This document shows positions 43,701 to 64,000 of a stretch of 64,000 nt of DNA, piece after piece. The translations under genes and the position numbers were made by a program. The stretch lies in assembly GCA_047495785.1 (NCBI GenBank), contig JBLDXI010000066.1, positions 711,701 through 775,700 on the forward strand. Direction: 5' to 3'. The stretch's first letter is position 1. Every line of letters begins with the position of its first letter. The notes beneath the pieces are model-generated. The model was not told the DNA's origin and searched no databases. It worked only from the letters and a program-made list of their open reading frames with translations. Source of the DNA: Lepidodermella squamata (taxonomy: Eukaryota; Animalia; Gastrotricha).

Positions 43701-44181
43701 CATAATTTCCCTAAGTGATTGTAGACAAAGTATCGATGCTCCAAGGCTAACATTAGGTCTTCAAATTGTATAAAATCTACCTTAGATGGCCTCTGGACTC
43801 ATGTCTTACTTTTTGAAAAAAATTAACAGCGAGCGGGAAAAAATAGTTTGATTTAATCTAAGATCTAAGGTATGCAGGAATTTTTTTACCCAGTTGGAAA
43901 ATATTTACCGTATTATTTGTTCCAATATTGGCCCATTCGCTAATAATCGCCATCCCTAATGGTAGCCCCGGTTTGAGAGGTCAAGTCGGTTCGAAAACAT
44001 AAAAAATGAACGATTAACCAAAATATAGTTTTTGAACTTTTCAAAATATCGAGGTTGAAATTTTAGTAGCCCGGGCTGCTATAGGAACTAATAGTTATTC
44101 GGATTATTTTTTTCTACCGGGCAACTTTCTACAAGTCGTAAATGAAGGATTTAAAAAGCGATAAAGCGAGGTTGAAATCGT

Positions 44182-45233: not shown

Positions 45234-45255
45234 AGTAGTAAGGATGGGAACTTTG

Positions 45256-45435
45256 GATCAGTAATGGCAGTACGGCGATTTTTACTATAGCCGTTTGGTA
45301 TAAATATACGCAATTTGGGATCAGTAATGGCAGTACGGCGATTTTTACTATAGCCATTTGGCATAAATATACGAGCGTTGTATCAGTAATAGCACTACGG
45401 TCATTTTTACTATAACCGTTTCACATAAATATATA
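45256..45435. repeat. Subterminal tandem repeat, 3 x 62-63 bp
   Basis: Units begin at 45256, 45319 and 45381: GATCAGTAATGGCAGTACGGCGATTTTTACTATAGCC..TAAATATA. Confidence 0.9.
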
Positions 45436-45599
45436 AGTGCGTTTTATCCGTTGCCCCATAAATGTACGCAATGTTTATGATAAAATATACAGCGGGCATA
45501 CTTTTTTTCTAAAACTATTATGAGTCATGCTTTTGCATTCTTTCTGGGAATTAATTTGTAATATAAAAAATGCACACATGATAATTTATTTTTAATTTT

Positions 45600-45875
45600 T
45601 CAATCTTTGTAACAGTAATTACAATTCCAATCACCACAATCTAGGCTGCATGCCTGATCTCTTGCTCGAGTTGCTATCATAAATCGTGATGCATCATTGA
45701 TCAATTGTTCAACCTCCAATTGTGTGTTCAACATTTCGTTTATAGCTGCTGTCATTGCTCGTTGCAGATGGTCAATGCTTAGCAGTGCTTGATATAAGCG
45801 TTCACGACTAAACATAACAGAATTTATTCAAGATTTTTTAAAAAAGAACCAAACTTACATGTCTTCTGCTTCCAT
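45600..45875 (-). CDS. Small Maverick protein, coiled-coil with Cys-rich tail; intron 45808-45858
   Basis: Splicing GTAAGT..TTTAG gives MEAEDIRERLYQALL..CSLDCGDWNCNYCYKD. Confidence 0.6.
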
Positions 45876-45955
45876 CAATTTTCTTAGTTTCCAAAAAGAT
45901 ACTTGATTAGATACAGTAATCTAAGAACTCAAGCTAGCTCATCTTTTTTCCTGCT

Positions 45956-46209
45956 TTGTCCATTAGCTTATATAAATACACCTTACTTTCCATTAACCTT
46001 TTTTGTAAATAAACATTACTTTCTCCTATCAATCCCCCTTAACTTTAATCTAAAATATAATAAATATTTTTTACTTTGGCCATTAGCATTTATAAATACT
46101 CCTTTCTTTCCTGATATGTCCATTAACTTGTTTTGTAAATAAACTTTACTTTCTCCTATCAATCCAACTTAACTGTAATCTAAAAAATATAAGAAACATT
46201 TTTTTACTC
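45956..46209. repeat. Two imperfect ~120-130 bp AT-rich direct repeats
   Basis: ccattagc..tataaatac..tgtaaataaac..tactttctcctatcaatcc..cttaact..aatctaaaa occurs twice. Confidence 0.8.
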
Positions 46210-46268
46210 AAGGAAAATCGAATAAAAGCAAAGATTAAGGTAGGGATAGCAAGGTCAAATAAGTTGCT

Positions 46269-47075
46269 ATGATTATTGGCTATGATGAATCTTATGAAGC
46301 GATTTTCTACCGAGAAGATTTACTTTTTCCTCCGAAATCATTAAATATATCACTAAATACCCTCTCTGGACGCATTACATTCGCTGAAGTCGCCATATTC
46401 GATTTGATTGCCAACTCGAAAGGCCAACATATTACTATCGATCATGTTTATCTCGGCTACAAAAGAGCCGTTGCTCGTCTCTTCCCATCAACCCACGATG
46501 GCACGAATTTTCAACATTTTGCCGAATATAATTTAGCTACCTGTGCTTCCATCGTTGGGCATGATTTATGGAAGAGCATCCTAAATGATACTACCACGCT
46601 CCTTGTTCGCCAGGATGATTTATGGTCGTCCATTTGTCACTCAATTATTTTTACTGAAAGTGATTACCTTTTGGATGATTGCCTCGACGATAGCCCTAAC
46701 CCTATTATTGTGTCTGGCCTGGAAGAAAGTTTCTGGTATGGCCTAACGGCACACCCTACCTACACCGAAGGCCGATATATCTACATCCAACATTTATTTT
46801 ACGATTTGTTAAAAAACTTTAATGGTGTCAGCGTAAACCTGCGGCACATATTCTACCTTTTACTTCGGGCAGGTCGTAGGGTCTCAGTAGAAATGCAGAA
46901 CGTCGTACCTCCACCCTATCAACACGCTCAGAAAATTCCATGGGCATCAGTCATCGATGTTCTTAATGGTCAGCAGGAAGGTGCGAATAGTAAATGGCCG
47001 GGCATCATGCAACGCTCCATCGCACTACAACCTGTCGCTACCGTCTTACCTTTCAACAACAGCTCTTCGACCTAA
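46269..47075 (+). CDS. Maverick hypothetical protein (268 aa); 3' structure unresolved
   Basis: Long ORF without a recognised motif; intron-like GTCAGT..CAG/AAG at 47080-47132/47135 just downstream. Confidence 0.5.
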   Translation: MIIGYDESYEAIFYREDLLFPPKSLNISLNTLSGRITFAEVAIFDLIANSKGQHITIDHVYLGYKRAVARLFPSTHDGTNFQHFAEYNLATCASIVGHDLWKSILNDTTTLLVRQDDLWSSICHSIIFTESDYLLDDCLDDSPNPIIVSGLEESFWYGLTAHPTYTEGRYIYIQHLFYDLLKNFNGVSVNLRHIFYLLLRAGRRVSVEMQNVVPPPYQHAQKIPWASVIDVLNGQQEGANSKWPGIMQRSIALQPVATVLPFNNSSST

Positions 47076-47242
47076 TTTGGTCAGTTTATTTTATTTATAT
47101 AATGCCTTTGTTATTTATTCATTCCTAATCAGAAGGTTCTGGGGCTCAGCAACTCCAACCAATCACCGCGGCCGGCTTCCGTCATTCGATCATTTTTCAT
47201 TTCAAACGCAAGAACTTTGAATATTATTCTTCTTACTGAATT

Positions 47243-48355
47243 TATGGAAGCTTTCTTCAATTCATCTCCGGCTTCTCCATTGTTTTTTTCTAACAATGAT
47301 TTCGTACCAATAAACCTGAATGAACCGAATACGAGTACGTTTACCAAGGAACCTGTTGAACAAACATCAGCCTCTAGATTAGCAAAAACTGCGGTTCGTA
47401 ATCAACCGAAACGCAATGCTAAACATAAAATTCAGAAAAAAGTCATAGGTACTGAGAAGAAATCAGTTGCTAAATCGGCGAAAACGCCATGCAAGGCGAA
47501 AAATAAACCAGCTGTTCCAATTACCAATCATGAGTCACGAAAGCAAGATTCTGTCGCCTCTTTTTTGGTCATGATTTGCCCTCAACCTATCGCAAAGTTC
47601 AAACAGAAACAGCTGAAATCAAGTATGTTACAAGCCTTCAATCAGCCGCATCACAGTCGACCACGATCATAAATTTGACTATATCCTATCCTGTTGATTT
47701 AAAGCTACAATCTAGCACTGAACCTTTTTTTCTATTGAAATCCCCACCATTAAATATGGAAGTAAATAATATACAATATGATATTGATTACTCTATTTCA
47801 AATATTATGGCTAAATCAAGGTCAAATTTTCTATTTAATTTAGATAGTCTAGCCCTAATTTTACCTTGTGCAAAATATAACCCAAAAAAAATGTCGAGTG
47901 CTTTGTTCTATAAAGTACCTGCTTTTAACGCGACGTTTTTATTATTTTCATCCGGAGCTATAATTTGTAGTGGTACCAAAACAGCCTCGAATTGTGTTAC
48001 TGCTTTTGGAGTTCTTCAAGCTACACTCAGAAAAATTGTTAATCGACGGTTGATAATCCGTGACCCAATAATTACTAATATAGTATTGTTCTACGATTTA
48101 CATAAAACTGTCAATCTTAGCCTGCTAGCTTTTCAATTTCCTAAAATATGCGTTTACCAACCAGAATTTTTTCCTGGGTTGCGTATACGTGTTTTCTCCA
48201 AAGTCAGCACTAATGAAAATGAACCAAAGTTAAATGTATCTGCCACACTGTTTCACACTGGAAAAATGATTATGAGCGGCTGTTTTTCGTTATCTCTTAT
48301 AAAAATAGCATTTGTTAAATTGGCGCCTTTTTTTCTGTATATCAAACAACAATAA
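47243..48355 (+). CDS. TBP: TATA-box binding protein-like; core ~47790-48340, probable basic N-terminal extension in another frame
   Basis: Both TBP repeats: ISNIMA..YNPKKMSS..LLFSSGAIICSGTK and ITNIVL..YQPEFFPGLRIR..TLFHTGKMIMSG. Confidence 0.85.
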
Positions 48356-48472
48356 AATGATTTAATGAATGAGGGAAGATTAATCGCGTGCCGTCTTTTT
48401 TTAAGCTAAAATCATTATTTCTACTTTCATCATTATCTATCAATTTTCAAAATTCGCAGCAGAAATAAAAAT

Positions 48473-48789
48473 ATGGCTATCGGTAAATTTCCCCGTTTTT
48501 AAAGTCTTCGTAATTTATTATGCATCAAACAACAGATATTCCGCGTGCTGTTTTACCGATCCTATTGCTGCTATCCCTGGTTACCATTTTAATCAGCTTT
48601 TTCGCTGTTATGGAAGTTCGCAATACTCAAGCCGAACTCCTTCACCTGCGGCAACTTGTCGAGTCTACTGAGCGGATGTTATATAATATAAATGATTTAT
48701 TATTCCACTTAAACGGTGATTTATTTAGCCACATGGCTAATTGTTCGGTTGTCCCTACTTGCCGTAAATTAGCTATAAAGAAGAATTAG
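48473..48789 (+). CDS. Small single-TM + coiled-coil protein; possible intron 48483-48535 (or unspliced start at 48520)
   Basis: AVLPILLLLSLVTILISFFAVM then heptad-like segment; splicing gives in-frame MAIDIPRAV. Confidence 0.5.
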
Positions 48790-48792
48790 GTC

Positions 48793-50004
48793 ATGCCACG
48801 TAATAAACACAATGCGAGACGTCTAGCTGAAGGAGATGCTAAAATAAACCACAGGTCAGACTTGAAATCGTTTGTTTTGAGCTTCTATAATGATCCGAAA
48901 CATGTTGGATCATTTCAAGGCCTGCGCAGATTATACTCAACACTTAAAGCTACATTACCCTTAGAGCTGAGAAATTCCCTTACTCATAAAAAACTAGCTG
49001 AGATTATGAGCCATGATCGAACATATTCATTATATAAACCACTAAGTGTAAGAAACCGGAAGCAATTCATGCAATATGAAGTTTATGCTAGAAGTGACCT
49101 CTTTCTAGGTGATCTTCTTGAAGTTCAAGATTCAAGCCAAGATAATGATGGAACCCGCTATTTACTTACAATCAAAGACTGTTTTACGCGTTATGCTTTC
49201 TGTATTCCCTTACTTAACAAAGAAGGAAATTACACTGCTGAGAAGATCAGTAATTTTTTGAGCAGCCTAACACCTGATTTGCGTTGCCGCTCTTTCACTA
49301 CAGATTCTGGCGGAGAATTTATCAACAAAGAAGCTAAAAAAATATTTAAAAAATTCAATGTTTATTATTACACTACAACCTCCATGTTCAAGTGTTCACC
49401 CATAGAAATTTTCAACCGTTGGCTTCGTAGAACTATTTCGAGGCATCAAATTGCAAATCATACGCTGCGTTACATCGATTACTTACCTTTTTTCTTAGCG
49501 TCTTACAATCAAATGAAAAATCGCAGCACTAGGGTTGCCCCGTTAGAATTATGGCTAGCTTCCCCAGAAGATCCTATAAATTTGGTTGCTTACAATAATG
49601 TTTTTGGAAAAAGAGATCAATTGATGCTTGAAAAGCGCAAGAATTTACTATACAAACCGACTTTTTCTGTCGGTGATTGTGTTAGAATTAGTCGTGTAAA
49701 GGATTTATTTCACAAAGAAGGAGATTTCATTTTTACTGAAGAATATTTTTTTATCGACCGCATAGATACTTGTACCATCCCCGACAAGTATTATCTCCGT
49801 GATACTCTGAATAAGCGTATTCAAGGTAGTTTTTACGATTGGCAGCTTCAGATAGCACATCCGCAAGAAACATATTTAATAGAAAAAGTTCTGAAGCATC
49901 GCACTATAAATGGCAAGAAACAGGCTCTTGTGAAATGGCAAAACTGGCCGATTGAAGCCGCTAGTTGGATTGATGCAAACGAGATCAAAACCTTGGCCTC
50001 ATGA
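48793..50004 (+). CDS. INT: Maverick retroviral-like DDE integrase with C-terminal chromodomain
   Basis: FLGDLL, YLLTIKDCFTRYAF, TTDSGGEF, PIEIFNRWLR, FSVGDCVRIS, YLIEKVLK..LVKWQNWP..SWID. Confidence 0.95.
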   Translation: MPRNKHNARRLAEGDAKINHRSDLKSFVLSFYNDPKHVGSFQGLRRLYSTLKATLPLELRNSLTHKKLAEIMSHDRTYSLYKPLSVRNRKQFMQYEVYARSDLFLGDLLEVQDSSQDNDGTRYLLTIKDCFTRYAFCIPLLNKEGNYTAEKISNFLSSLTPDLRCRSFTTDSGGEFINKEAKKIFKKFNVYYYTTTSMFKCSPIEIFNRWLRRTISRHQIANHTLRYIDYLPFFLASYNQMKNRSTRVAPLELWLASPEDPINLVAYNNVFGKRDQLMLEKRKNLLYKPTFSVGDCVRISRVKDLFHKEGDFIFTEEYFFIDRIDTCTIPDKYYLRDTLNKRIQGSFYDWQLQIAHPQETYLIEKVLKHRTINGKKQALVKWQNWPIEAASWIDANEIKTLAS

Positions 50005-50204
50005 ATAGAGTTCCTACGACTCCACTCTTAGCTTTCCTACAAAAGCCATCTGTGCGTGTAGGGGCCTACATTTTTTTCCTTCTAATAACCGTTTGGCTTA
50101 TAGAAATTTCAAACTATTTATTCAAAACTAAGCTCCCCCCTTTTGGCAACAGCGCAATCCTTACTTTAGAAAAGATAGATAAGGATAACATAACAAATGC
50201 TTAG
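50001..50204 (+). CDS. Small single-TM protein overlapping both neighbours
   Basis: ATGA overlap with the integrase stop; VGAYIFFLLITVWLI. Confidence 0.55.
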   Translation: MNRVPTTPLLAFLQKPSVRVGAYIFFLLITVWLIEISNYLFKTKLPPFGNSAILTLEKIDKDNITNA

Positions 50205-51417
50205 CATCCAGGAGGACTTCTTTATTTATTTACCCTCGAATGCCTCATATTCTCAACATCCGGCGAATACTCCGTCGGATTATCAAGTTGCTCTCCCTGT
50301 CCCAATTTGCGTACCCGATTGCCGTGCTTATGAAGTAGCCCTACTTGAGGCTACAATTCCTGTTAGGTGGAGTAGCATTGATCGTCATACAGTCTATGTG
50401 CTTGATTGTAACTGGCTGAAATCTTTTAAAAACGACATTATTGCTAATTATTTAACAAATCCTGGCTCTTTGCCACATCGGATGAAAAGTTTCAACAATC
50501 CATGGGAAACTGGCTTTATTAACAAAGTAAATTTCGGAGGTGAATATTTTGCGAATATAACCAAACTAATCGATCACTTTAATGAAAAAATATCCATCTC
50601 AAGTAGTAATGGCTCTATTTTTGCTCATTATGATTCAGTCAACAAAAAAACTAAAATTACCTGTAAATGGCCATATTCTATGTTTATACCTTCAGATTCT
50701 GCTGGCCTCTTAGGTTTTGTGTCTCCAATAGAACAGAATACACCGTCTGGAGTTTTCATTTTTCCCAAGGCCCCAAAAAATGACGAGCCAGAATTTAATG
50801 AAGTTTCCACTTTTGATATAAAGTCAACGTATGCCTTGGCATATGCGTGGAATATGAGCCACCAAATTCGTGAAAATCCACACATTTTATTCAACTCAGT
50901 TGGGATTGTTAGGCTTTCTAGCAGACCAAAACTTAAGGAGGATGCAAATAATGAGACAGCGGCGGTAGAAAATCAAGAAGGCGTAAATTCAGCACAGCAC
51001 TTTGATTTTTCTGAGCAAACAGTAATCACCAAAGATAATGATTTACCGCCTGCCTTTATTTATGCATGCTATGAAGAAAGTGCTACAGCTCAATACAACA
51101 TTCAGTTGAATTATGGCAATAACTCACTGTTCATTTACTGCTCAGTTGCAGCGGATGTTTTTGTTGGAGATTGCCAAGCTAGCCTCCTTCGAATGATAAC
51201 CTATTCTACGATGGCTTCTGCTACGGCAAATTCAGACTTGTCATCACATTTTACAGTGATTTATAACTCGGGCCTATATTTACCTTTAAAAGCCAATTTT
51301 ATAGATTCAATTCAAGTTCAAATCCGCCGCGATAACGGGGCATTGATCGATTTTGTGGATGGTAGCAAAGTTGTATTGCTACTTCATATTCGCCGAAAAA
51401 CCGGAGCCTTATATTAA
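50197..51417 (+). CDS. Minor capsid protein (penton, PX-type)
   Basis: FFIYLPSNAS..NTPSDYQVALP..YEVALLE and LFIYCS..VGD..LLR..YLPL..IQVQIRRDNG..LLLHIRR. Confidence 0.85.
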   Translation: MLSIQEDFFIYLPSNASYSQHPANTPSDYQVALPVPICVPDCRAYEVALLEATIPVRWSSIDRHTVYVLDCNWLKSFKNDIIANYLTNPGSLPHRMKSFNNPWETGFINKVNFGGEYFANITKLIDHFNEKISISSSNGSIFAHYDSVNKKTKITCKWPYSMFIPSDSAGLLGFVSPIEQNTPSGVFIFPKAPKNDEPEFNEVSTFDIKSTYALAYAWNMSHQIRENPHILFNSVGIVRLSSRPKLKEDANNETAAVENQEGVNSAQHFDFSEQTVITKDNDLPPAFIYACYEESATAQYNIQLNYGNNSLFIYCSVAADVFVGDCQASLLRMITYSTMASATANSDLSSHFTVIYNSGLYLPLKANFIDSIQVQIRRDNGALIDFVDGSKVVLLLHIRRKTGALY

Positions 51418-51455
51418 TATAAGTGGCTGAGTTCTAATTATTAATATTACCGAAG

Positions 51456-51998
51456 ATGCCCCTAGCTTATTCTAACCAAAACGTTGACAAGTACCAGCAG
51501 TTTTTTCTCCGCCAACACTCCTCCCCGCTGATAGCAGGCTATGGAGCTGGAGCGGGTGCTAACCTGGACCATTTCCGTGGGGCAACAATTCAATTTCCAT
51601 ATCATTATAGGGGTCAGGGAATAGGAAATATATTAGGTGCCTTTTTCAGAAATTTCTTCCCAGTAATTGCTCCGTCTATTTTTCAACAAGCATTATCTAC
51701 TGGCCAAAAAATATTAGGTGATATGCAACAACCTGAGGGCGCTAGACCTAGTTTTACCGAATCCCTTAAGCGTCATGGCACTTCAGGCGCCTTAAACATG
51801 GCTAAGGATATTGCTGAAACGGCTTTGAAGCAACATCAAGGCGGTGGAGGTGGCCGTAAAAGGCGCCGTCGTCGTGGCCCTAGTAAAACTAGTAGTGTGA
51901 CTGCAAAACGTAGGCGCCGTGCTTCTACTACAAAAAGAAAGGCTTATAAAAGGAAAAGACGCGCAACAACTAAATCAGTGCTATTTGAAGCGTCTTGA
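51456..51998 (+). CDS. Conserved Maverick small basic (core-like) protein
   Basis: RGQGIGNILGAFFRNFFPVI amphipathic motif; GGGGGRKRRRRR Arg/Lys-rich tail. Confidence 0.7.
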   Translation: MPLAYSNQNVDKYQQFFLRQHSSPLIAGYGAGAGANLDHFRGATIQFPYHYRGQGIGNILGAFFRNFFPVIAPSIFQQALSTGQKILGDMQQPEGARPSFTESLKRHGTSGALNMAKDIAETALKQHQGGGGGRKRRRRRGPSKTSSVTAKRRRRASTTKRKAYKRKRRATTKSVLFEAS

Positions 51999-52031
51999 GC
52001 CCATTGCTGCGTTTGATTCTTCAAATTTGTA

Positions 52032-53522
52032 ATGGAAGGCTTTGGAGATAATTTTGTTCACCCAGCCTCAGCCTCTTCAATAGTATTATCTTCAGATTTA
52101 GATTTATTTACTGTACCGCCTTCACAGCTTGCTGAAGAAAACCAAATAAGTATAGATGTTTACCCAATTGCCCCTCTTAATAGTTCACCGAACCTGATTG
52201 AGTTTCAAATCGGCCCGTACAATGATTATTTGTGTCTGTCACGCATGCAACTGATGCTCAAGTGGAAAGTAGTTAGAACCCCTTCTGAAGCTCGGAAGAA
52301 AAATGCTGGCGAAGCTGACGATGCATACAACGAGTATAAGGCTAGTCTTTCGGCTACAAATTTACAAAAAGCCCCGCTTTGTTTAGCCCACCACACAATG
52401 TTCAAAACATGCGAGATTTCACTAAATGGGCAACTTTTAAGTGAACAAAATTCATTATACGCTTATCGGGCCTATATTTCAACGCTTTTGTCTCATAATA
52501 CTGATGCAAAAAACACGATATTACAGACACAATTTTGGTATCCTGATACAGCTAAAAAACTGGATAATTTTGACAATTCAAACGAGGGATTTAAAAAACG
52601 GTTGGAAATTGTTCAGGGCGGGAAATCTGTGTGCACCCTGGGACGCCTGTTTGCAGATCCTATGCTGTGTAATAGGCTACTTCTACCTAATGTTGAAGTC
52701 CGCATCAAGCTCTATAGGGCATCTAACAATTTTGCTTTGGTTGGGCCGAGCACAGCTGATCCTCACTCAATCGTCATTGAATCTGCAAAAATTATTGCCC
52801 GGGCTGTTGTTGTGTCGCCGGACATAGTGATTGCTCATACGCGTGCGCTGGAAAAAACTAACGCCAAATATCCTATAATGAGAGTTCGAACAAGGCTTTT
52901 TCACATACCAAGTAGTGTTTTGAGTTACAGTGTAAGTTTGCTCATCGCGCGTTTCTAAGTCAATTTTTAAAACTCTAATGGTTTAACAGATACCACAATG
53001 TATTAATGGTAAGCTTCCAAGGCGTATGTTTTTCTGTTTTTTTGAAGATTCCGCCCTGAATGGAACGGCGGGTAAAAATCCATTGAATGCATTACACAGC
53101 CAGCTATCCCGAATATCGATTTATTTGGGCAATGAACTACATCACTCAACAGCTCCCTTGGAAATGGATTTTGCAAATGGAGATGTCACCAGAGTCTATT
53201 TGGAGCTTCTCAATGCTATCAACCCAGATAACCCTTTCAAGGCATCTACGTTAACTATGGATCAGTTTATTAATGGCTTCACAATTTTTGGTTTCGATTT
53301 ATCGCGCAACTCCTCGTTGCAAAATTACTCAGTTATACGCACAGGTACCTGCAGAGTAGAGTTGAGTTTTGCTGTTCAAACAACAATTGTTACTCAGCTG
53401 TTAGTATTAACTGAAACTGATTCAGTTTTTGAGGTATCATCTTTTTTCATAAAATTAAAATTGCCTTAAAATTCAAATTTTTTAAGATCACACGAACGCG
53501 TGACGTAATTGTTGATTCTTAA
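52032..53522 (+). CDS. Major capsid protein (double jelly-roll, PY-type), 459 aa; introns 52932-52989 and 53434-53486
   Basis: SDLDLFTVPPSQ, YAYRAYISTLL; spliced SYS|IPQCINGKLPRRMFF and SVFE|ITRTRDVIVDS*. Confidence 0.9.
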
Positions 53523-53532
53523 GCAGTTTTTC

Positions 53533-54096
53533 ATGTACAACAATGAATTGGAAGATTTCATCCGGATTGATCCAGTACTAAAAAAGTTTGACATTTTTGT
53601 TGTAGCCGCTGATCAGCTACCACAGCAGCTTCCTATTGTGAAAAATAATCCACAATTGATTATCTGTAACACAGGAAATGTATACAATTCTACAGGAAAG
53701 CACTGGGTCACACTGTTTGTTCACAGCGCACAGCATCCTGATGAGCCCTGTGAGTTTTTCGATAGCCTTAACCTTTCCCCTTCCTATCATAACCTCTATA
53801 TCGACAACTTTTTGAAAGCGAATAGCCAAACAGAAGTGCCGTACATTCATTGCAATAGGTCTTACCAGCATGTTTTTTCACAAATCTGCGGCTTATGGGC
53901 TCTATATTACAGCATGCTTCGAGCGCGAGGTAAAGACATGCACCAAATTTTGAGGCATTTTGATCAGCTTGGATCAAAGAACAATTTGCTTATAAAAGAC
54001 TGTGTACTTTATCATAAATTTAATACATTATATTCCCACTATGGTCTATCTATGAGACCACTTGAAAGAATAAAACCCTGTAACGTTAGATTATAA
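53533..54096 (+). CDS. Adenain-like cysteine maturation protease
   Basis: IICNT, GKHWV, EFFDS, YQ..SQICGLWALYY (His/Asp/Gln/Cys). Confidence 0.9.
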   Translation: MYNNELEDFIRIDPVLKKFDIFVVAADQLPQQLPIVKNNPQLIICNTGNVYNSTGKHWVTLFVHSAQHPDEPCEFFDSLNLSPSYHNLYIDNFLKANSQTEVPYIHCNRSYQHVFSQICGLWALYYSMLRARGKDMHQILRHFDQLGSKNNLLIKDCVLYHKFNTLYSHYGLSMRPLERIKPCNVRL

Positions 54097-54099
54097 AGG

Positions 54100-54943
54100 A
54101 TGAGTGATTTGCGCTGCTGCCCTGGCAACATAAATGAAGCTTTGCCTTTTGTTCACCCTAGCACAATTCTCATTGTTGGGCCGTAAGTGACGATGGAAAT
54201 AAAAGTCAATATATTTTAGTGTAATTTACTCATCTTCAGGTCGGGGAGCGGTAAAACAAGTCTGGTGCTTCAAATCCTACAGGATGCATTCAGTTTTGAA
54301 CTTCCTTTTGAGAGAATTGTCTATTTTTATTCTACTTTCCAACCCATTTACAATGACATAGCCGATGCTGCATTGCAAGTTCACAAAATTAAAGTTGAAT
54401 TCGTAAATTTAGCAGACACAAAAAACAGCAGTAGCGATAGCTTCAGCTTAAAAAATTATATCAACGACAATAACGAGACGCAGCCCCGCTGTTGCCTAGT
54501 ATTTGATGACGTGTATCGCCTATTAACTGAAGACGAAACACTGGTACAGCTTTTTTTAGGAGGGCGGCACTTGAATACGACAACCATTCTCCTTCAACAA
54601 GTTTTGTTTACTCGAGCAAAAAATAGCAGGGAAATTCTGGTTTGCCTCAGAAAATTATTGTTTTTTCTTCTATGTATTTTCTATTCTATAGCAAAATGCA
54701 AACTATTTATTCTATTTTCGCTGCATTTCCGACTCTGCAAGCTTTAGATCATATGCACAACGGCGTTCCCCAATGGGCTGGCGAGGCCTTCTTGAAGCGT
54801 TGAACCAAGCAACTGCTGAATCATCTCACACGCCACTGCTACTGGATAATTGTGCAACTACTCCGGATAATCTCCGCATTCGTTCGAGCAATGGCTTCGG
54901 TAGTAAACCTGGTTACGCTTACATTTTAGTCTCAAAGAAATGA
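54100..54943 (+). CDS. FtsK/A32-like packaging ATPase; introns 54183-54239 and 54640-54691
   Basis: Spliced Walker A IVGP|SGSGKT, Walker B LVFDD, GRHLNTT..LQQ, REIL|QNANYLFYF, TPDNLRIR. Confidence 0.9.
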
Positions 54944-54994
54944 TGATATGTACTATTATAAAAGGATTCATTGCCGCCCAATTTTCGTCGTTAA

Positions 54995-55408
54995 ATGAAT
55001 AAAGTTATTACCTCAGCAACGTCACCATCGTTCAGTCTTGATAAAAAACGGCGGCTTTTTCTTGCATTGAAATGGTTATTGCATGCTCACCCCGGTCAGC
55101 GTGCTGATATTTTAGCAACTAGCTCTGTTAGCCTTATACGATTTCTTAGCCGTTGCGCCTTGTATTGGCTTCGCAGCACTAGTACTGTTCTGGCCCCTGA
55201 TTTGGCTAAATTGAAACAAAAAGGTGTCAATTTGGTCGAGCACAACCGGCAAGTTTTTATTCGACACTGCCTTAATAGCAACAAGAACAATAGGCGAAAT
55301 AAGGCTTCGAAAGCTTCCTTTTTTGCAGTTTTACCCACTGTATTGAAATCCTTTGCACCCAGGCTAAAGTTTGATTATTCAGAACTCAAGAGGCTTCTTC
55401 GAATCTAA
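54995..55408 (+). CDS. Basic Maverick protein (137 aa)
   Basis: LKWLLHAHPGQRADILATSSVSLIRFLSRCA resembles the small ORF that follows the ATPase in animal Mavericks; TATAAAA at ~54957. Confidence 0.55.
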   Translation: MNKVITSATSPSFSLDKKRRLFLALKWLLHAHPGQRADILATSSVSLIRFLSRCALYWLRSTSTVLAPDLAKLKQKGVNLVEHNRQVFIRHCLNSNKNNRRNKASKASFFAVLPTVLKSFAPRLKFDYSELKRLLRI

Positions 55409-55411
55409 ACT

Positions 55412-56563
55412 ATGCAGCGAAACTATGCACAGCGCATGACTATTGTTCCACTTGCGACACCTGGGCCAACTCCAGCACAACAACAACAACAACAACCAAA
55501 CGCGAGCGACTTGATTGCTGCTAAAACATTGCTGAGCAATCCTCTGCTTTTCAAACTAGTGCAGCTATTACAGTCTTTAGACCGGGATGTGATAAACAAC
55601 GCTAGTAGTAGTGATAATTCAGCCGATTTAGTGCGAAAACGTAACGAACTCATGCATGAGATTATGAATTTGAAGAAGCTGGTAGTTTTACAAGGCAGTA
55701 GCCAGCCGCCAGCCGCTATTCCAATGTCGCCTGCACCAGCAGATCGAGCAGAATCGAGGCCGCGCTCTCCTCCTCCTCCTCCTCCTCCTCCTCCTCCTCC
55801 TCCTCCGCTGCCGCCGCCGCCGCTTCCTTCTGCTTCTTCTCCTCCTCCTCCTCCTCCTCCAAAAAAACAGCAGCAACAACAACTTGCGCGCCAACAACCT
55901 ACTAAATTAACATCTAGTAATTTTGGTCAAGCGGCCGGGCCTAGCTATAACAACTATAACAGAGATTCGGGTATTGGCGGCTTTCAGCAGCAGTTTTCAC
56001 CTAATACAACGCCACGACCTTCAACTGATAATAGCAGCAATTATGAATTTGATGATCTTCAAATGGATTTTCTATTCGCTGCCCCGCAAACATCATCGAC
56101 TTCTAGCGCTGCAGCCACGACCGTCCTCAGCCACGATGATGTTGTTGTTGATCGGCCTAATGATGAGCAGCTGCCTACGAGAGGAGGGACCCCCCGCGCG
56201 CGCACCCCCCAGGCCCCTCGAGACAGCAACACAACAGCAGGGTCGTCTTCGTTTAGCGGCGATGAGGACAGCAGCGGCAGCAATAGTGAAGAGCTGCAAG
56301 ATGGTGCTGATAATGATGATAATCAAGCAGAAAGACAAGAAGAAGCCGCTGCCGCTGAACCGATGGAAATTGAGCTAGCTGGAGCAGCAACTGCAGCGGC
56401 AACGCCACGGAAGGGTCAAAAGCGCGGTAGAAAGCCACGTTCTATGACTGATCAAACACAAATATCACCACCTGGAAAACTTTTCCGAAGAACGTCACAG
56501 CGTAAGATAAATAAAATCAACAAGTTTCAAGCTGGCACAGGGTTTTGGAGTTTATTCATGTAA
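55412..56563 (+). CDS. Pro/Gln-rich, largely disordered Maverick protein (383 aa)
   Basis: MQRNYAQRMTIVP start, (CCT)n poly-Pro at ~55768-55860, acidic region, NLS-like RKGQKRGRKPR. Confidence 0.6.
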   Translation: MQRNYAQRMTIVPLATPGPTPAQQQQQQPNASDLIAAKTLLSNPLLFKLVQLLQSLDRDVINNASSSDNSADLVRKRNELMHEIMNLKKLVVLQGSSQPPAAIPMSPAPADRAESRPRSPPPPPPPPPPPPPLPPPPLPSASSPPPPPPPKKQQQQQLARQQPTKLTSSNFGQAAGPSYNNYNRDSGIGGFQQQFSPNTTPRPSTDNSSNYEFDDLQMDFLFAAPQTSSTSSAAATTVLSHDDVVVDRPNDEQLPTRGGTPRARTPQAPRDSNTTAGSSSFSGDEDSSGSNSEELQDGADNDDNQAERQEEAAAAEPMEIELAGAATAAATPRKGQKRGRKPRSMTDQTQISPPGKLFRRTSQRKINKINKFQAGTGFWSLFM

Positions 56564-56570
56564 TAATCGA

Positions 56571-59500
56571 TCATTGATCAGCGCTATATCCATGTGGATA
56601 AGTTAGAAAGGAAGCATCGCCGGGGCGTAGCCAACGTTTATCATAGGTTAAACGAATCTTTTTTGTTATATGAACACAATGAATTTCCGATAACGGAGTA
56701 TGCACTTTTTTAAACTGAGTCTGATCCAATTCAGCGATGACGCTGTTTTTGTTGTTATCACCCCGGCCCCCGCTTCCGCTGGTTTCGTTATCGTGGAGAC
56801 TTTGTATTACATGCTTGATGAACAAGAAAAAATCGAGAAGACTGCGTGAATGAAAACTTTGACGTATTCCCTGCGCGTGACGTAAATAATAAAAAACAGA
56901 GGGCGTAACAACAAGTAGCAATTACCTTTAACATTAGCTTGGCTTTGCCGTCAGCAAAAAGTAGGGCATATGCCTTACAGCCCAGTACAACCATTGCAAT
57001 GATGCGTTGCCCTGTATCAAGCTGATCCGCCAAGCCGCCAAGAACGGGTGTGAACTCAATTTTAGTAATTCCAGGCCCTTGAAGGCAAAAAATTGAATCC
57101 GTGTCTAAAACAAAAGACAAAAAACGTAGAGATGTTGGTAGCATAAGCGGCGCTATTCTCTAACCGCTGTAGATAGCACTTTTTGGGCCGACTCGGTACA
57201 GCTCACGAGCCAGTTTCACACGAGCATTAGCTGTTACGAAGGCCGCTGTTATAACTGAGGTGGATCCATTTGGAACGTCGGCATCTTTGGTTGGCCGTGT
57301 TACAATTCGCAAGCGAGAGACATCATCAGAGTTGATGAGTAAGCCTAGTGGTTGAATATCCACAATTTCCAAAGCTGGATTATTTAGCATTTGCTGAAGC
57401 AGAAACGGGGATTTGATATAATCTGTTCTCTCTAGATTAGAATTCATAGCAAATCGACCAAAAAAGCTGTTCAAAACTAATTTGGCGATCGCGCGTAACC
57501 CAGGGTTCTTTTTATCCAACTTGGTGCTATCAATCGTTATACCAATGCGTTCCCATTGCTCCAAATACTGTGCTTTTTGTTCACTAGTAGCACAGTTTGG
57601 CGGCCAGCCGGAGGATTCGGCCTTCAAAATGGTGAATCTTTTAATGAAATCTCTGAAAATTGTATTGCTCTTCTTGAACTCCCATATCTAAAAAAAATAA
57701 CTTGATAGAAGCCATGCATGAGTTGGCTAAACAAAATTATTAACCTCGTAGACTTCCAGCAATCTGTAGCCATGAACATCTGTAGCGTACTTCAGTTCCA
57801 CAGAGCAATACGAACCAATCCAGGACCTTTCATAATCAGAATGGGTGCATTCACGGCTTGAAACGCACAAGTTTGGATTTGCAGTCGACGAACAAGCATA
57901 GCAACATGAGAACACGAGCTTGTTTTGTTTACTACGAAAGCAGAGTACAGGTAGCCAGATGTTTTTCGGCGCTAATACCTAGCAAAATAATGTGGTGATG
58001 ATGAAAGCAGGGAGACGATATGTAGATGCGAAGAGCTTACGCGTGCTTGTACGACACCAAAAAAAGATTCCTTTGAATAAATCTCCTGCAGTTTCTCGTT
58101 GTTTAATCTGAGATCCAAGGTGGATACTTTAGGTGGTCCTATTGCATAGTAGCCATCCATCATACAGCTTGGATATAACGAGTTGAAGTCGGCGGAAATT
58201 ATAGAATAATCGGGCGATGGAAATAAGAAGTCCTTGGTTTGCATCCCGCTTTCCTTACAAATTTGAGCAATCTTTTCCAAATTTTGGTCGCCTGAAGTTG
58301 AGTGTGATTCGGCAATCATAGCCATTAAACGAAAAGCTTCGACCCGCCCTAAAAAGTAGGCATGATGTTTTAATCCCGCGAAGATTAAATAGGGAAAACC
58401 TCCAGTTACCTCCAAAGAAAAACGAACGGCTCTCCATTACATTAGCTATTGTGAGATTATCATAAATCTCCTGTGCTCTCGGGTGTTGTTTGAAACTAGC
58501 TCTAATTTCATGCTCCCAAAAGCTTTGAAGAATGTAACCATTCGAGCGAAACAACTCTTCACGTTCCAAGGTTTGCTTGTAAACTACGCCGTTTGGTTGT
58601 CCAGATAGAAAATTTAGTTGTGAGGCCTCAAAGCATTGCAAGCAGCCATGGACAGCACAACCATGAACCTCGACAATCAGATCGGGTTCACTCGGAATTT
58701 TATCACGACGTGCAACAAAACCGTCGACGCGATAAGGATAACGGTGGCCAGGTATAGATATTCGAACTTCTTGACGTGAGTTCTGAGCGTGTTTCATTGA
58801 ACCATAAGTTTCAGGGTCAGACTCCATCAGAAATTGAAGAAAAGCTATCGAGAGCCTGCTGTGTGAATCCTTGCCACAGTAGCCAGCGGTCGGGATGACA
58901 GGTAATGTATCCTTCGTAAGAAACAGCTTGCGGAAGCATGTGCTTGTGAGAGAAGCTAGTGTGATGCATTCTTTAAAGGCATCAGTAGAACACAACTCCA
59001 GCATTAGCGCCCGAAATTTGATTGACGCCTTTTCCAAAACTAGACAATCCTGTATGCAGTATTGCAGTAACGTGTGGCGAACACTGAACCGTTTCAGTTT
59101 GTTTTCGTTGTAGAAAGTTAGAAATTCTGCTCTTTCAGAAGGAGACATTTTGTCAGGCTCATAGTAGATCATATTAGGCAGCTGTGGGAATTCGAGATTG
59201 AAACTCGAAGGATTACAGCGAATTCAATCACAATAGCTCAAGAAGTTGATGATGTACTTACTTTTCTTTAGTGCATAAGACGTAAGGAAAGAAGGTTTTC
59301 TTGTCTGGGATTCCCATTGTTGCTGGTAAATCCCTGTTGTTGAACAAATACCTGTAAGCAATGTAGTTTCTTAGTGTTTCTTAGGTAACCTACCTTAATC
59401 TGCATTGAAAAAAGAGATATGAATCCAAAAATCTGATTTTTTGTTGTTTGAAATCAATGCATAGTAGAGATCCCTGCCTTTGAAGAATCTTCACTTTAGA

Positions 59501-61427
59501 ACATCGTGTTTGAATTTCTTTCAGTAATAATAAGGAATCGAAATTGGCTGAGTTGTGAGCCAAATAAATCGACTGGTAATTCATAGGTAGAAGCACCCAG
59601 TTTACGAAATCCTCCAGAGGACGACTTCCATAAAAAATATGAAGTCCACAACTAGAATGGCATCGCTGAATCCTCGCTTCGATGCAGTGAGGTATGCATA
59701 CGACCTTTGCAACGATAAGGCATACTTGGAACTCATTGTTGTTATCAGCAAGTGATGGCGAAAATGTCTCAGTGTCCCAAAAAACTAGGTTACGATAACG
59801 TTCCAGTTTATTCGCCGGTTTCAAGGGCTAAAAATACACCAACCACAGTATTTTGAAAAAAGCTGGACTGAAAAAAATGAGTATACCAAGGGAGTCATGA
59901 AGCAGAAGTGTGTGCCATTTTCTTCGTCGCTGGCTTTCAAAGGCTCCTGACAAATGTGACAGCGCCGCCCGGGACACATAGCCTCATGCTTGAGAAAATG
60001 TACAAATTTCCTCCCGCATTTAAAGCATGGATTCTTTTTAGCACATTTGTGGTTTTGCTTACAACGTTCGCTATACAAAACTAAAAACATAAAAAGAGCT
60101 GAATAATAATGAAAAGGTTAAAAACATCAGACCTGCACGACATTGCGGACACCGCGTGTAGTTTTGTTGGTCTGTGTTGGAAATCACACGGCAAATGCTC
60201 CCTGATACACCTAAAATAATATTAATGATAAAAGAAGTGAAATTCAGGTTTTTCATGTAAAAATTACGGCAGGAAGAGCATGCCAACTTGCATCTGTGCA
60301 CAGCCGTACTCGTTTTCGTCTGAAAGCAAGTGGGGCATATTCGTTGTGCATTGCTAAGAGTGGCCTTCATAAAGTTGAGATTCGCAATGACATGAAAATG
60401 ATGACTGTTGGGCTGAGAGACGTCGTTGCGATAAACCAGTAGAACAACAGGAAGCAACCCAAGGCTTACGCGATGATCAAATTCTGGGATTTCCCTAATA
60501 ACATCCTGTGATTCGTACGAGTATACTACGAATCTGTAAGTATTATGTTCAGGATCGATAGCCGAACACAGGGCTGAGTAATGATCATCTAGATTGTAGG
60601 CTGGAAGGTTGAGAGGTAAGCCCGCTTTCTGATATAGCGCCGTGGCTTCGCGAAATTGACGATTGGTTCGCGTACTACGTATCGATTTGAAGGTTGCTTG
60701 AAGAGATGGATCCGTAGGATTCGCCTTCATGTGAGCCAAAGCCACTCCAGTGATGAGAGCTCTGCCCATGCAAAGATTGTTCGTTTCATTCTTGCGCGCT
60801 CCGATTCTAACGATCGATTTGGAGCGAAGAAAAAATTTGTCCAAAGTTTCGTTTATAGCCCGCTCTGCCCGAGAACCACCAACAATTTGACCTAGATCTG
60901 CATTGGGGTTATCAATGACACAGAGACGAATTGTCCACCGACCAGCAAATGAGAGTTCTTCATTACTCTGTAATATTTTTCTCAGTTGATCAAAAATTGA
61001 AATTTCCAGCAACCGATCGCGTTTCATGAAGGGTAGGCTAAGAGGCATCTTCAAGTCGGGGTGGTACAGTGTTAGCCGGCAGAAGGAATTCACAGGTAAA
61101 TCACGATGGATATTTACAACAATATCGAACAGGAAGTTGGCCAGAATATTGAAGCGGGTCTCCAAATCAAATATTAGCCACCTGGTCGGCTGGTACGTTC
61201 TGCACAAATGATCGAATATTATCCAGTCGAGGTTCATCAGCGCCACCAGACAATTGAATCATCGGCCCAAGCGAACTAGAAGATTGGCCATATCTGTTGA
61301 TGTAGGTTGAGGCAAAGTCGGATGTTACGGGCTGAATGAAGTACTCCACAGAAAACATTTTGAATTTTGTAGAATGAATCAGGCGATTACTTCGAATAAA
61401 TGAGTATTGTAAACTATAGTTATCCAT
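56571..61427 (-). CDS. pPolB: Protein-primed family B DNA polymerase with 10 introns and one 1-nt frameshift near 61169
   Basis: Introns 60211-60267, 60081-60132, 59828-59886, 59334-59393, 59204-59261, 58349-58409, 57979-58040, 57688-57744, 57105-57164, 56871-56925 restore WDTET, AHNSANFD, FLDSY, YCIQDC, FFG|GRVE, DFNSLYPS, KLVLNSFFGRF, YS|DTDS, KAYA, K|GI, YDKR. Confidence 0.92.
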
Positions 61428-61544
61428 AACAATCTAAGATTAAAAATTTAAAATTGATCGAATTTGGGAAGAGGTAAAACTTTATTACAAGGATAGATTG
61501 AAATAAATATTCAGTAAGTCATTTTAGTCAAGTTTTGTGTTAGC

Positions 61545-62066
61545 TTATTCATTGGCTGTTTCAATCATCGCTGCAACAGTTAACACCCCAGTTGCAAGGT
61601 CTTGAAACTGAGCTGCATCAAGAGAGACTCCTTGTCTTGAGGGTTGTTTATTTCCTAAAAAGTTAAATCATAAAAAGATTGCTATTACTGTAAATTTGAA
61701 GTAAATACCTTTAGCATCCAGATAAAACCTGCGTATATCTATAAGAATCGGTGAAAATGATGGCACAAAGACACAGACTTCAATTTTGCATTCATGCATC
61801 GAAAATTTAAAGCCTGTGTTGTGAGATAGCAGGGCAAGTTGAGCCTGAGCAACCCAAGCATCATTCGGCGGTCGAAAATAAGGAACGAACTGGCTAAGAA
61901 ATTCGTCTTGTCTAAAGGCGAGTTTTTTAGGCTTATCGTTCTTATCTTTGCGATCAGTCATTATGTAGATGAGATTAGAATCCTGAGGATGCTGTTGAAT
62001 GACCAAGTTACTAGACATGTGATGATTGACTGTCTGGTTAGCAGATTCTACTATCGCCTCAGCCAT
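61545..62066 (-). CDS. PC4/Sub1-domain protein; intron 61655-61708
   Basis: Spliced ILIDIRRFYLDAK|GNKQPSRQGVSLDAAQFQDL matches the PC4 pattern IDIRxYY..PxKKGISL..Q(W/F). Confidence 0.8.
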
Positions 62067-62108
62067 GATTATTGAAAATTAAATCTAATGAAATAAGAAT
62101 GTAAAACT

Positions 62109-62471
62109 TTAAGGGATGGGTTCTTTATATTGGCATAACTTTTCATGCCCAAAAATGAGGTCATAAGTTAGAGTAATGGGACAGCCTTTATCAGAATATT
62201 GGCATTTGTAAATCAAATTCGAGATAATGTTCGATAAAATTACAGGGGGTTTAACGAAATCTTTCCCTGTTAATGATTCGCGGCAAAGTGGACAGCAACA
62301 TACTGTTCGAGCTGAATTTTGAAAAATAGCGAGAACACATTTAGTACAAAATAAATGGCCACAGGGGCGCGTTTGAATAGGATTAAGTAGGATAGATAAA
62401 CAAATTGGACATTGCAAAGATTCAGCGTCTAAAATCTGGCTGTTCGAGAGCACAAGTCTTGTTGGATCCAT
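62109..62471 (-). CDS. C3HC4 RING + TRAF/SIAH-type Zn finger, putative E3 ligase
   Basis: CPIC..PCGHLFCTKC..CPLCR, then CQYSDKGC..HEKLC. Confidence 0.85.
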   Translation of the reverse strand: MDPTRLVLSNSQILDAESLQCPICLSILLNPIQTRPCGHLFCTKCVLAIFQNSARTVCCCPLCRESLTGKDFVKPPVILSNIISNLIYKCQYSDKGCPITLTYDLIFGHEKLCQYKEPIP

Positions 62472-62555
62472 CAATGAGGATTCAAGTCTGAGAGATTACA
62501 GGCGTGATAAGAGAGGCAACATACTGAGAAGCTTGCTTTAGAACCTCAGAGGCAT

Positions 62556-63245
62556 TCAATTATCAGTGTCGATAACAAGCACGGGACATGGTAGGGATTT
62601 GTTTGTAGTCTCAACAGTACACATTTTTTCATGAAACTCATGTACGAGGCGTAAATAATCCAGTGATAATAGCATTTCAGAACCCCGAGCTCTAGCTACG
62701 GCTCTTTGACAAGCTATTTGGGGAGAGGAGCGCAAGTAAATAATAGCTTCAGTTTTTACAAAATTCGGCTCGAAATTATCATACAAATTCATGAGAGCGT
62801 GATATTCGATAGAATTTATGCGCTTGGATGCATACGCACATGGGATAAAGACGTTTTTAGAACAGAAGGGCGTTCGATCATGCAGAACGATAGTATGCGC
62901 CCCGTAGATTTCAGGTTTGTGGTTAGGGGCTGAATAAAGGCCGCACATATCACTCGTGGCTACAATTTGAAAGTTGAACGCATTTTTCATCTGATAGTAA
63001 TCTTTCAAAATGTTAGTTTTATCGTCATCAGTAAAGGACTCCCAACGATGAACAGGCTCGCAAATTGGCCACGCGGTATATCCCTGAAGTTTACGGTTGA
63101 GTGAAGGTAGATTAGTGAGACCCTCGATTAAGGTTGATTTCCCGCTAAAACAAGAGACTTTAAATAGAATTCTATTCGGTGGAGTATATGAGACTTACGC
63201 CCCAATGTTGCCGACTATGCCGAAATGGTAGACTTTAGGATGCAT
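62556..63245 (-). CDS. Deoxynucleoside kinase; intron 63145-63198
   Basis: Spliced P-loop GNIGA|GKST, EPVHRW, FQ, DRT, IYLRSSP..RAVARARGSE, YLRLVHEFHE. Confidence 0.9.
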
Positions 63246-63679
63246 CCAGCTTGCTTCAAGAAATATGCTAAGTGTATTCTTGAAGCATCTCTCTTAAATA
63301 GTCTGAGTGATATTTCCATAAAAGGAAAAAACAGGGAGATGTTTTGTTTGAATTGTTTAAGGTAATTACACCGTAAAGGGTAAAAAATCCTAATTGCTTT
63401 TTATTTTGATAAGTAAAAAATCGCATTGTTTAATTAGGGAGGATGTATAAGATTTATTGACATGATGTTTTCTTATTGAATTACCGACAGCAATTAAGGA
63501 GGATGTATACAATACCAAGAATCTTTGATGAAAAGCATTAAAGCCAGCACTGAGGGGTCAACAGAGCTAAAGGCCCTAATGCATTTTTAAGGAAGATTGA
63601 ATTACAAAAACAATATGCCTGAAAGGAGGTAGCCGCTCACATAAAAATCGAACCTCAGTAACAATATAAATTATAAAAT

Positions 63680-64000
63680 ATGAAGCTGAAGGTAGAGCTA
63701 ACAAGTAACAAAGCTAAAGAACCGACAAAGCATACTAAAGGCTCTGTGGGTTGGGACATCTATTCAGCAGAAGAGACGACACTGCAACCTGGAACCAGGG
63801 GACTGATTCAAACTGATATTAAAATCTGTTTACCACGAGGATATTATGGACAACTATTCAGTCGATCAGGAATGAGCATCAACCATGGAATCGATACGGT
63901 CGCTGGAGTAATAGGTAAGAAGCAAATAATAATGAAAATTACTAATGAATATCTGTATTTTTCATGAATTAAAGACGCCGACTACTCTCACGAGATGTGT
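63680..64000 (+). CDS. dut: Trimeric dUTPase; intron 63915-63974; truncated by the window end
   Basis: GWDIYS, SRSGMS, spliced motif III AGVI|DADY. Confidence 0.9.

Follow-up and report, generated by a model that had tools for sequence, protein, structure and literature searches.

Judged by its sequence, the part of the 64,000-nucleotide stretch of Lepidodermella squamata DNA analysed here (the window) that runs from position 45234 onward is a Maverick/Polinton. It carries a protein-primed DNA polymerase B (pPolB), an rve integrase, a capsid protein of probable double jelly roll (DJR) type, a packaging ATPase, an adenovirus-type protease (recognized indirectly, by homology) and a terminal repeat. 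All gene classes named in the original prediction were recovered at 45234-64000, where the features are:

45234-45355, forward strand: left terminal inverted repeat of about 122 nt, starting AGTAGT, recognized from sequence
45249-45435: three 62-nt subterminal repeats, overlapping the left terminal inverted repeat
45600-45875, reverse strand: small ORF of 74 aa, no function assigned, 51-nt intron 45808-45858
46269-47329, forward strand: ORF of ~268 aa, no family, 53-nt intron 47080-47132 in the 3′ UTR
47756-48355, forward strand: TATA-binding-protein homologue (PF00352, E 3.4e-24), no intron seen
48473-48789, forward strand: small ORF of 87 aa with a hydrophobic stretch, 53-nt intron 48483-48535
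48793-50004, forward strand: rve integrase with C-terminal chromodomain, single continuous ORF
50197-51417, forward strand: candidate minor capsid (penton) protein, continuous ORF
51456-51998, forward strand: Arg/Lys-rich basic ORF
52032-53522, forward strand: major capsid protein (MCP), 461 aa, introns 52932-52989 (58 nt) and 53434-53486 (53 nt)
53533-54096, forward strand: adenovirus-type cysteine protease, continuous, weak PF02902 match
54100-54943, forward strand: A32-like packaging ATPase, 245 aa (PF04665, E 3e-7), introns 54183-54239 (57 nt, inside Walker A) and 54640-54691 (52 nt)
54995-56563, forward strand: two continuous ORFs, one of 137 aa and one of 383 aa, proline-rich, no function found
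56571-61427, reverse strand: pPolB, 11 exons, PF03175 on four pieces; introns 60211-60267, 60081-60132, 59828-59886, 59334-59393, 59204-59261, 58349-58409, 57979-58040, 57688-57744, 57105-57164 and 56871-56925
61545-62066, reverse strand: PC4-like protein (weak PF02229 match, E 0.005), 54-nt intron 61655-61708
62109-62471, reverse strand: RING finger protein, continuous (PF00097, E 4e-7)
62556-63245, reverse strand: deoxynucleoside kinase (dNK; PF01712, E 1e-20), 54-nt intron 63145-63198 in the P-loop
63680-64000, forward strand: dUTPase (PF00692, E 9e-15), 60-nt intron 63915-63974

The integrase matches PF00665 at E 1.7e-5, which is under the curated cut-off, and PF00385 at E 6.4e-7, and five homologues with PF00665 were found at E 3e-37. 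The protease has a tblastn match (E 1e-10) to an ORF of the Polinton locus L035 that is itself a weak PF00770 match. The MCP is likely to have a double jelly roll fold: residues 22-457 of the exon-joined protein align to a continuous ORF of the same locus (E 2e-34), itself a weak PF21738 match, and Atlas features reach 0.97 to DJR-like clusters, at a recognition value under the tool's mark. Direct Pfam and PDB sequence comparison gave no match for the MCP, and word-index protein searches returned no relative for its exon 1 or for an arrestin-like exon of the host. The C-terminal part of the penton candidate shows weak tblastn similarity (E 1e-5 to 7e-4) to capsid-adjoining ORFs of other Polinton loci; the label itself comes from the position of the ORF and the usual Polinton layout, and is tentative. 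The adjacent basic ORF, with tblastn matches to L054 (E 6e-7) and L037 (E 2e-6), likely encodes a core protein. For the ~268-aa ORF at 46.3 kb there was no Pfam match, and all Atlas leads were below 0.9. Exonuclease and polymerase motif regions and the integrase, protease and Walker motifs all stand in open frames.

It had been claimed that pPolB, MCP and ATPase appear as fragmented ORFs and that removal of GT..AG segments restores them. This is borne out, as the proteins, joined with an X at each junction, of these three genes, of the PC4-like, dNK and dUTPase genes and of both small ORFs contain no internal stop. Joined pPolB is 1331 aa, read from 61135 down, and matches a profile of 33 homologues with E 4e-254; its exons abut on that profile with no large gaps, and the intron 57105-57164 sits inside motif C. 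The joined ATPase aligns over both junctions to continuous relatives. The three core genes hold 14 introns, 11 of which are skipped in RNA-like runs, so that the intronless core described for these elements, a trait by which they are called intact and not a defining gene, is absent here.

In total we count 20 introns (pPolB 10, MCP 2, ATPase 2, accessory genes 5 and a 3′ UTR 1), where 18 or 19 had been predicted in the same gene classes. All have GT..AG ends and measure 51-62 nt (mean 56.3, SD 3.3), which agrees with the proposal that they are host-sized, the host introns recognized by eye, from DNA only, in the window being of 48, 50, 53 and 56 nt (besides a longer one, 261 nt, and a 28-nt one that is doubtful). 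Their GC content is 29% vs 44% for the pPolB exons, their density is 1.07 per kb, the donor is GTAAGT in 5/20, and the acceptors are TAG (11), CAG (6), AAG (2) and GAG (1). Retention would break the frame for 18 of the 19 coding introns, and the PC4-like intron, in phase 1, contains an in-frame stop.

Removal of these segments can be followed in sequencing runs, all taken as assembled contigs, not reads: X1 is DNA-like, and X2 and X3, from different studies, are RNA-like, their RNA nature not being on record and the RNA label of X2 being a tool's guess. X2 and X3 skip 14/20 introns as listed joints. All ten pPolB introns are skipped within one X2 contig, three of them also in X3 and none in X1, and joints in both X2 and X3 were obtained for the PC4-like and dNK introns, for the 3′ UTR intron 47080-47132 and for 48483-48535. 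Three more introns are supported, bringing the total to 17/20: MCP intron 2, skipped in an X2 contig as contig pieces; the dUTPase intron, where an X2 contig breaks off in a loose end at 63914 and continues from 63975 (an X1 loose end lies at 63985); and, indirectly, the 51-nt intron, where X3 contig pieces end at 45807 and restart at 45859. MCP intron 1 and both ATPase introns are not among the joints listed and rest on homology. Each of the 14 listed skips has GT..AG ends on the coding strand (12/12 + 2/2), for which the probability in a random 51-62 nt skip is 0.003. X1 shows none of these skips, its copies keeping the introns; the predicted splicing is thus seen as segments skipped by X2 and X3 contigs and retained in X1. 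With GT..AG ends, removal of 17/20 in RNA-like data and open frames, these segments have the properties of major (U2-type) spliceosomal introns. Over the integrase and candidate minor capsid genes, X2 and X3 have hardly any coverage, which is uninformative as to expression, and X4, from another organism of the X1 study, has no contig on 55950-64000.

Since neither X2 nor X3 is recorded as RNA, both might instead be DNA of an intronless sister element, the segments then being inactivating inserts in the window's family. But the listed skips all have GT..AG ends on the coding strand in genes of both strands, and one of them is in a 3′ UTR with poly(A) after it: such a run stands after 47329, 3′ of the ~268-aa ORF, with an X2 loose end of 20 A. 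Furthermore, apart from the skips the X2 and X3 contigs differ from the window by 0-1 letters, and their coverage is patchy by gene. On these grounds we reject this explanation, which we hold to be the least probable of those considered.

The left terminal inverted repeat lies in the window. For the right end we infer a second copy, on a single X1 contig that includes the exit from the dUTPase gene, from the loose ends at 45355, where X1 and X2 contigs depart from the window, together with matching contig depth, which is 2186.4 in both X1 contigs, that on the left repeat and that running out of the dUTPase gene. The long X1 contigs on the element differ from the window by 0-1 letters at depth 1533-2186, and the X1 contigs on host flank have depth 159-404 outside repeats and many differences. 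This hints at a young, multi-copy family, contig depth not being equal to copy number. Alternatively, the element could be an endogenous virus, domesticated or in decay, that has lost its mobility and acquired its introns as a fixed host locus, the extra depth reflecting local duplication. The window copy has two non-intron frameshifts, near 61.2 kb (pPolB) and 62.6 kb (the 3′ end of dNK), and its last ~15 nt, beyond 63985, no longer follow the runs; the contigs listed show neither a second insertion site nor a target-site duplication; and intron-bearing transcripts of algal PLV regions have been read as host genes or domestication in the available text of PMC10675990. Against this, every run that covers the two frameshifts reads otherwise than the window there, at full depth, the core genes are all present in open frames, the terminal repeat seems to stand at both ends in X1, and depth rises over the element and not over unique flank. 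We consider domestication or decay unlikely.

A further possibility is that the introns are copies of an introner that recently invaded the integrated element, for which there is a precedent in dinoflagellate Polinton-like proviruses (PMC11957031). Their uniform lengths would fit, as would the 6-nt exonic direct repeat flanking 59828-59886. However, the other 19 of 20 have no such repeat, inverted ends were found at none of the 20, no two introns are more alike than shuffles (best score 21 vs a median best of 23 in 200 shuffles), and the 45-kb host part of the window has only chance-level matches of 12-17 nt to them. The introns being unrelated to each other, we see no recent introner burst and reject a recent introner origin, to which we assign only a very small probability. 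An ancient introner origin is still conceivable. The dinoflagellate proviruses (PMC11957031; PMC12166617) share with our element intron-type inserts in full-length Polinton-like elements, but theirs are repeated transposon copies, mostly acquired after integration, with no core-gene splicing in the available text, whereas here the introns are unique, common to the copies seen and spliced, in an animal host.

Among 89 related metagenome and viral loci, 7 have intron candidates, at other positions than here, and a single origin is rejected (AU p 9e-10). The scan gave 23 gaps with at least 30 nt of excess DNA in 15 of the 89 loci, of which 11 were dropped on visual inspection because their score was low or their lengths did not match. 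Since other Polinton pPolB genes have intron candidates at other positions, the trait spans more than one lineage. A clade that includes proteins of Panagrolaimus and Bursaphelenchus may be the sister group of the window pPolB, a placement on which FastTree and a quick IQ-TREE disagree; its best identity to sampled relatives is 33-34% over the polymerase domain. The predicted spliceosome-dependent lineage adapted to host architecture therefore stands as regards splicing but not as regards its limitation to one lineage, and adaptation would be one reading only, as neutral accumulation fits equally well.

We favor, at a probability of about 0.8, that this is a Maverick/Polinton of an invertebrate with 20 short GT-AG introns in its polymerase, capsid, ATPase and accessory genes, likely spliced by the host. 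The major spliceosome of the host would remove the introns from nuclear transcripts, so that host splicing would be required for the production of replicase and capsid, and an element without that machinery likely could not replicate. Being mutually unrelated and common to the copies seen, the introns would be old gains, likely kept because the element copies DNA to DNA, without a reverse-transcription step that would purge them. The narrow size range likely reflects minimal-intron recognition by the host, and the family would likely have multiplied recently with its introns in place. Going further, we suggest only tentatively an animal polintovirus that is active and forms virions, and for which the host spliceosome is indispensable in expressing polymerase, capsid and packaging genes alike, at ~1 intron/kb. 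It would then be the extreme of a hidden group of spliced Polintons, with several separate origins, that screens have removed as decayed; its host-sized introns would disguise it where intronless foreign genes are silenced and would hinder transfer to hosts whose intron rules differ.

Adenoviruses, with a related polymerase, protease and capsid fold, also need host splicing; they splice leaders and alternative exons onto mostly continuous coding regions, and they do not integrate. In the present element, by contrast, minimal introns interrupt the coding sequence itself. Animal Mavericks/Polintons (vertebrate, PMC8097293; nematode, PMC10748475 and bioRxiv 10.1101/2022.07.12.499685; adintoviruses, PMC8502044) share with our element, in the available text, pPolB, rve integrase, packaging ATPase, protease, a major and (here as a candidate) a minor capsid gene, a terminal inverted repeat and a size of ~19 kb. 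In agreement with the original prediction, the accessible parts of the vertebrate and nematode papers describe the core genes as intronless, with introns in cargo genes only, e.g., wasp and krma, whereas pPolB, MCP and ATPase are spliced here. For the nematode fusogen, no ORF in the window reaches the 730 aa cut-off. Mirusviruses likewise carry numerous GT-AG introns in their core and virion genes, which have been interpreted as a ratchet tying the virus to the nucleus (PMC12768974), but belong to an unrelated viral realm, with large genomes, protist hosts and, in the available text, a density of up to 0.65/kb vs 1.07/kb; unlike what is described there, no introns encode endonucleases here. 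No spliced, intron-rich Maverick was found in the literature searched.

In Maverick surveys, elements are screened by ORF length and pass as intact when their core ORFs are intronless, so that spliced families end up among the fossils. Jeong et al. (PMC10748475, available text) kept pPolB of at least 900 aa, MCP of 390 and ATPase of 190, and here stop-to-stop pieces reach at most 395, 313 and 175 aa, respectively; as predicted, ORF screens would discard the element. It fails three published cut-offs, yet it looks young, and RNA-like data show its genes transcribed and spliced. The case illustrates that host-type introns can enter a small DNA virus lineage, capsid genes and catalytic motifs included, and the element offers a compact system for questions of intron gain and of whether introns shield mobile elements from silencing. 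The candidates in related loci suggest that a re-survey by spliced alignment would shift the counts of intact Polintons in invertebrates.

We find that, judged by its gene content and its ends, the sequence from 45234 to the right end of the window is a Maverick, and that the introns claimed for its core genes by the original prediction are real, with 20 GT..AG segments of 51-62 nt within the element. The left end at 45234 is marked by an AGTAGT start and three 62-nt repeats. Pfam searches of stop-to-stop pieces identified a TBP, an rve integrase with chromodomain, an A32-like ATPase, a RING protein, a deoxynucleoside kinase (dNK) and a dUTPase, and DNA_pol_B_2 on four pieces of the protein-primed polymerase gene (pPolB). 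The major capsid protein (MCP) gene had Atlas protein features at 0.97 to double-jelly-roll-like clusters, which is weak by the tool's own mark, and was aligned by tblastn over nearly its full length with continuous ORFs of other Polinton loci, which themselves match PF21738 weakly. A contig of the DNA-like run X1 leaving the dUTPase gene continues for ~530 nt at the depth of the X1 contig at the left terminal repeat, and we infer a terminal repeat of ~122 nt and an element of ~19.3 kb. A pair of 84-nt direct repeats spaced at 130 nt occupies 45989-46202, between the first two, divergent genes; these are possibly promoter or origin elements.

Introns of the element
pPolB: 10
MCP: 2
ATPase: 2
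PC4-like gene, dNK, dUTPase: 1 each
two small ORFs: 1 each
3′ UTR of the 46.3-kb ORF: 1 (47080-47132, plus strand, spliced, starting 4 nt past the stop codon)

The predicted counts for the six named genes stood, but the total is 20 and not 18-19. As the spliced intron at 47080-47132 sits in a 3′ UTR, intron gain is not confined to coding sequence. Translated exon by exon, with an X marking every junction, the eight genes were all free of internal stops (pPolB from 61135 down), which bears out the claim that removing the segments restores the frame. The X-joined pPolB matched a profile of 33 full-length homologues at E 4e-254, its exons abutting; up to ten residues from a junction, at most 4 positions are inserted or 4 deleted. 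Coding introns number 19, spread over the phases as 7, 7 and 5, and retention of 18 of them would disrupt the frame or bring in a stop. The introns are AT-rich (29% GC vs 44%), and three interrupt catalytic motifs, which we take to be polymerase motif C, the ATPase Walker A and the kinase P-loop. Acceptor-like sequences just upstream of the start codons of pPolB (61430-61445, minus strand) and the integrase (48780-48792, plus strand) could point to introns in the 5′ UTR or to trans-splicing.

Four runs turned up for this sequence, none of them recorded as RNA; they are read here as contigs. X2 and X3, from different studies, are inferred to be RNA from contig features and not from the run records, because they show GT..AG skips, contig pieces or loose ends at intron borders, and a poly(A) loose end (X2, at 47329). 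In 55950-64000, one 4731-nt X2 contig omits all 10 pPolB segments, and the PC4-like and dNK segments are also omitted in X2; X3, in the parts it covers, omits 5 of the 12, and no intron segment is skipped in X1 at a depth above 1500. All 12 skips have GT..AG on the coding strand, with a chance of 0.003 per random skip. Within 39800-55740, the segments at 47.1 kb and 48.5 kb are omitted in both X2 and X3, X2 contig pieces bridge MCP intron 2, and X3 pieces stop at both borders of a 51-nt intron, which is indirect. At the right end of the window, an X2 loose end spans the dUTPase intron. The junction check thus supports at least 17 of the 20 segments as skipped in RNA-like contigs and none in X1 (14 listed joints, two by pieces or loose ends, one indirect), and seven of them are skipped in X2 and X3 alike. 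The first MCP intron and the two ATPase introns are not among the joints listed, a table shortened by 32 joints, and rest on homology. We regard this as strong evidence for splicing. One X2 contig links 46394 with ~63084 via a short shared word, and is either a chimera or an internally deleted copy.

The first 45 kb of the window are animal DNA with C-type-lectin-like, receptor-like, ligand-gated-channel and arrestin-like reading frames.

Host features
1-7200, minus strand: long multi-exon gene with C-type-lectin-like, Sushi and fibrinogen-like segments, introns of 48-53 nt
10-26 kb: another family of ORFs for membrane proteins
21600-38000: six receptor-like membrane-protein paralogues in a tandem cluster
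44420-45233, minus strand: coding-like exon hosting the element insertion, with an in-frame stop, a frameshift and a 261-nt intron

The single ORF tested from the membrane-protein families at 10-38 kb had no Pfam match. The exon at 44420-45233 matched NOD only, weakly, and is likely a pseudogene. The original prediction gave host introns the same size as those of the element (49, 54 and 56 bp); by eye, on DNA only, four measure 48, 50, 53 and 56 nt, one 261 nt and a doubtful one 28 nt.

Long X1 contigs on the element differ by 0-1 letters at depths of 1533-2186, and those on the host flank show many differences at 159-404 outside repeats; this hints at several near-identical intron-carrying copies or at free genomes, contig depth being no copy number. 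Two frameshifts mark the window's copy, near 61.2 kb and near 62.6 kb, and every covering run reads otherwise at both; the copy also departs from X1 and X2 after 63985, inside the dUTPase gene. The departure (63986-64000) could be a nested insertion, a rearrangement or an assembly error; for frameshifts and departure together, assembly error and copy-specific damage are indistinguishable here.

The closest pPolB relatives share 25-41% identity over the searched exon. Of the 89 related loci compared, 9 are viral contigs and 80 are the top-ranked of 325 metagenome hits, the ranking being biased towards continuous genes; pPolB is a single ORF in 29 of the 89 and in pieces, mostly decayed, in 60. 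Seven loci (L028, L030, L031, L035, L036, L054, L068) hold 12 canonical GT..AG candidates of 52-255 nt at 8 positions in conserved pPolB motifs, four of them in L028; these are DNA-only predictions, with 11 other gaps set aside by eye. Candidate positions are common within clades and not between them, and none matches the window's ten, the nearest being two codons off in motif C. The capsid, ATPase and integrase ORFs of L035 and L054 look continuous. In a tree of 40 rows (21 of 61 left out for run time), a single clade of the seven intron-bearing rows kept was rejected (p-AU 9e-10). The placement of the window's pPolB, a long branch, differs between methods: FastTree puts it in a clade with Panagrolaimus and Bursaphelenchus proteins (support 0.965), a quick IQ-TREE run outside it. 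With that grouping, named after seeing the tree, enforced, the likelihood rose by 10.9 and the test did not reject it; a nematode-related origin seems plausible.

The full-text literature searched held no animal Maverick whose core genes are spliced and rich in introns, and the element is a variant not found there; the search did not extend to the founding papers of 2006-2007, to Repbase, to most subscription journals or to any supplements, so earlier multi-exon annotations could exist, and novelty holds to that extent. In the portions of the sources available, intact vertebrate elements showed no introns (PMC8097293), nematode core genes are called intronless and cargo genes intron-bearing (bioRxiv 10.1101/2022.07.12.499685), viral genes are assumed intron-free (PMC9356565), and algal Polinton-like virus regions have intron-bearing transcripts, mostly without homology (PMC10675990). 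The accessible text of PMC12220804, PMC8502044, PMC11296320, PMC11131425, 10.1101/809541, 10.64898/2026.07.28.741278 and 10.64898/2026.10.13.758929 did not address spliceosomal introns of core genes. ORF-based screens would indeed dismiss the element: it fails three ORF-length cut-offs in the available part of PMC10748475, where elements are filtered by ORF length.

Introners, intron-generating transposons, are reported for dinoflagellate proviruses in the available parts of PMC11957031 (journal version PMC12166617). Here, likeness among the 20 introns does not exceed chance (best score 21 vs a median best of 23 over 200 shuffles), none has inverted ends, one of the 20 has a 6-nt exonic flanking repeat, and matches to the host part of the window span just 12-17 nt. 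As the introns are unrelated, lack inverted ends and have such short host matches, a recent introner burst is unlikely.

Introns may protect foreign genes from the silencing that intronless ones meet, as worm and mammalian work suggests, and those of the element may have been selected, for example for such protection, or may simply have accumulated. Any adaptive role, like mobility and virions, is presumed. We propose that host RNA polymerase II would transcribe the element in the nucleus and that the major spliceosome would excise its minimal, host-sized introns; messages left unspliced would be out of frame. The TBP homologue (47756-48355) and PC4-like gene (61545-62066) could steer host polymerase II; the Polinton locus L034 has a weak TBP match as well. 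The element's own pPolB would replicate it and its own integrase would integrate it, and since both steps would go from DNA to DNA throughout, introns once gained would not be purged, the same ratchet of kept introns as that proposed for mirusviruses in the available part of PMC12768974.
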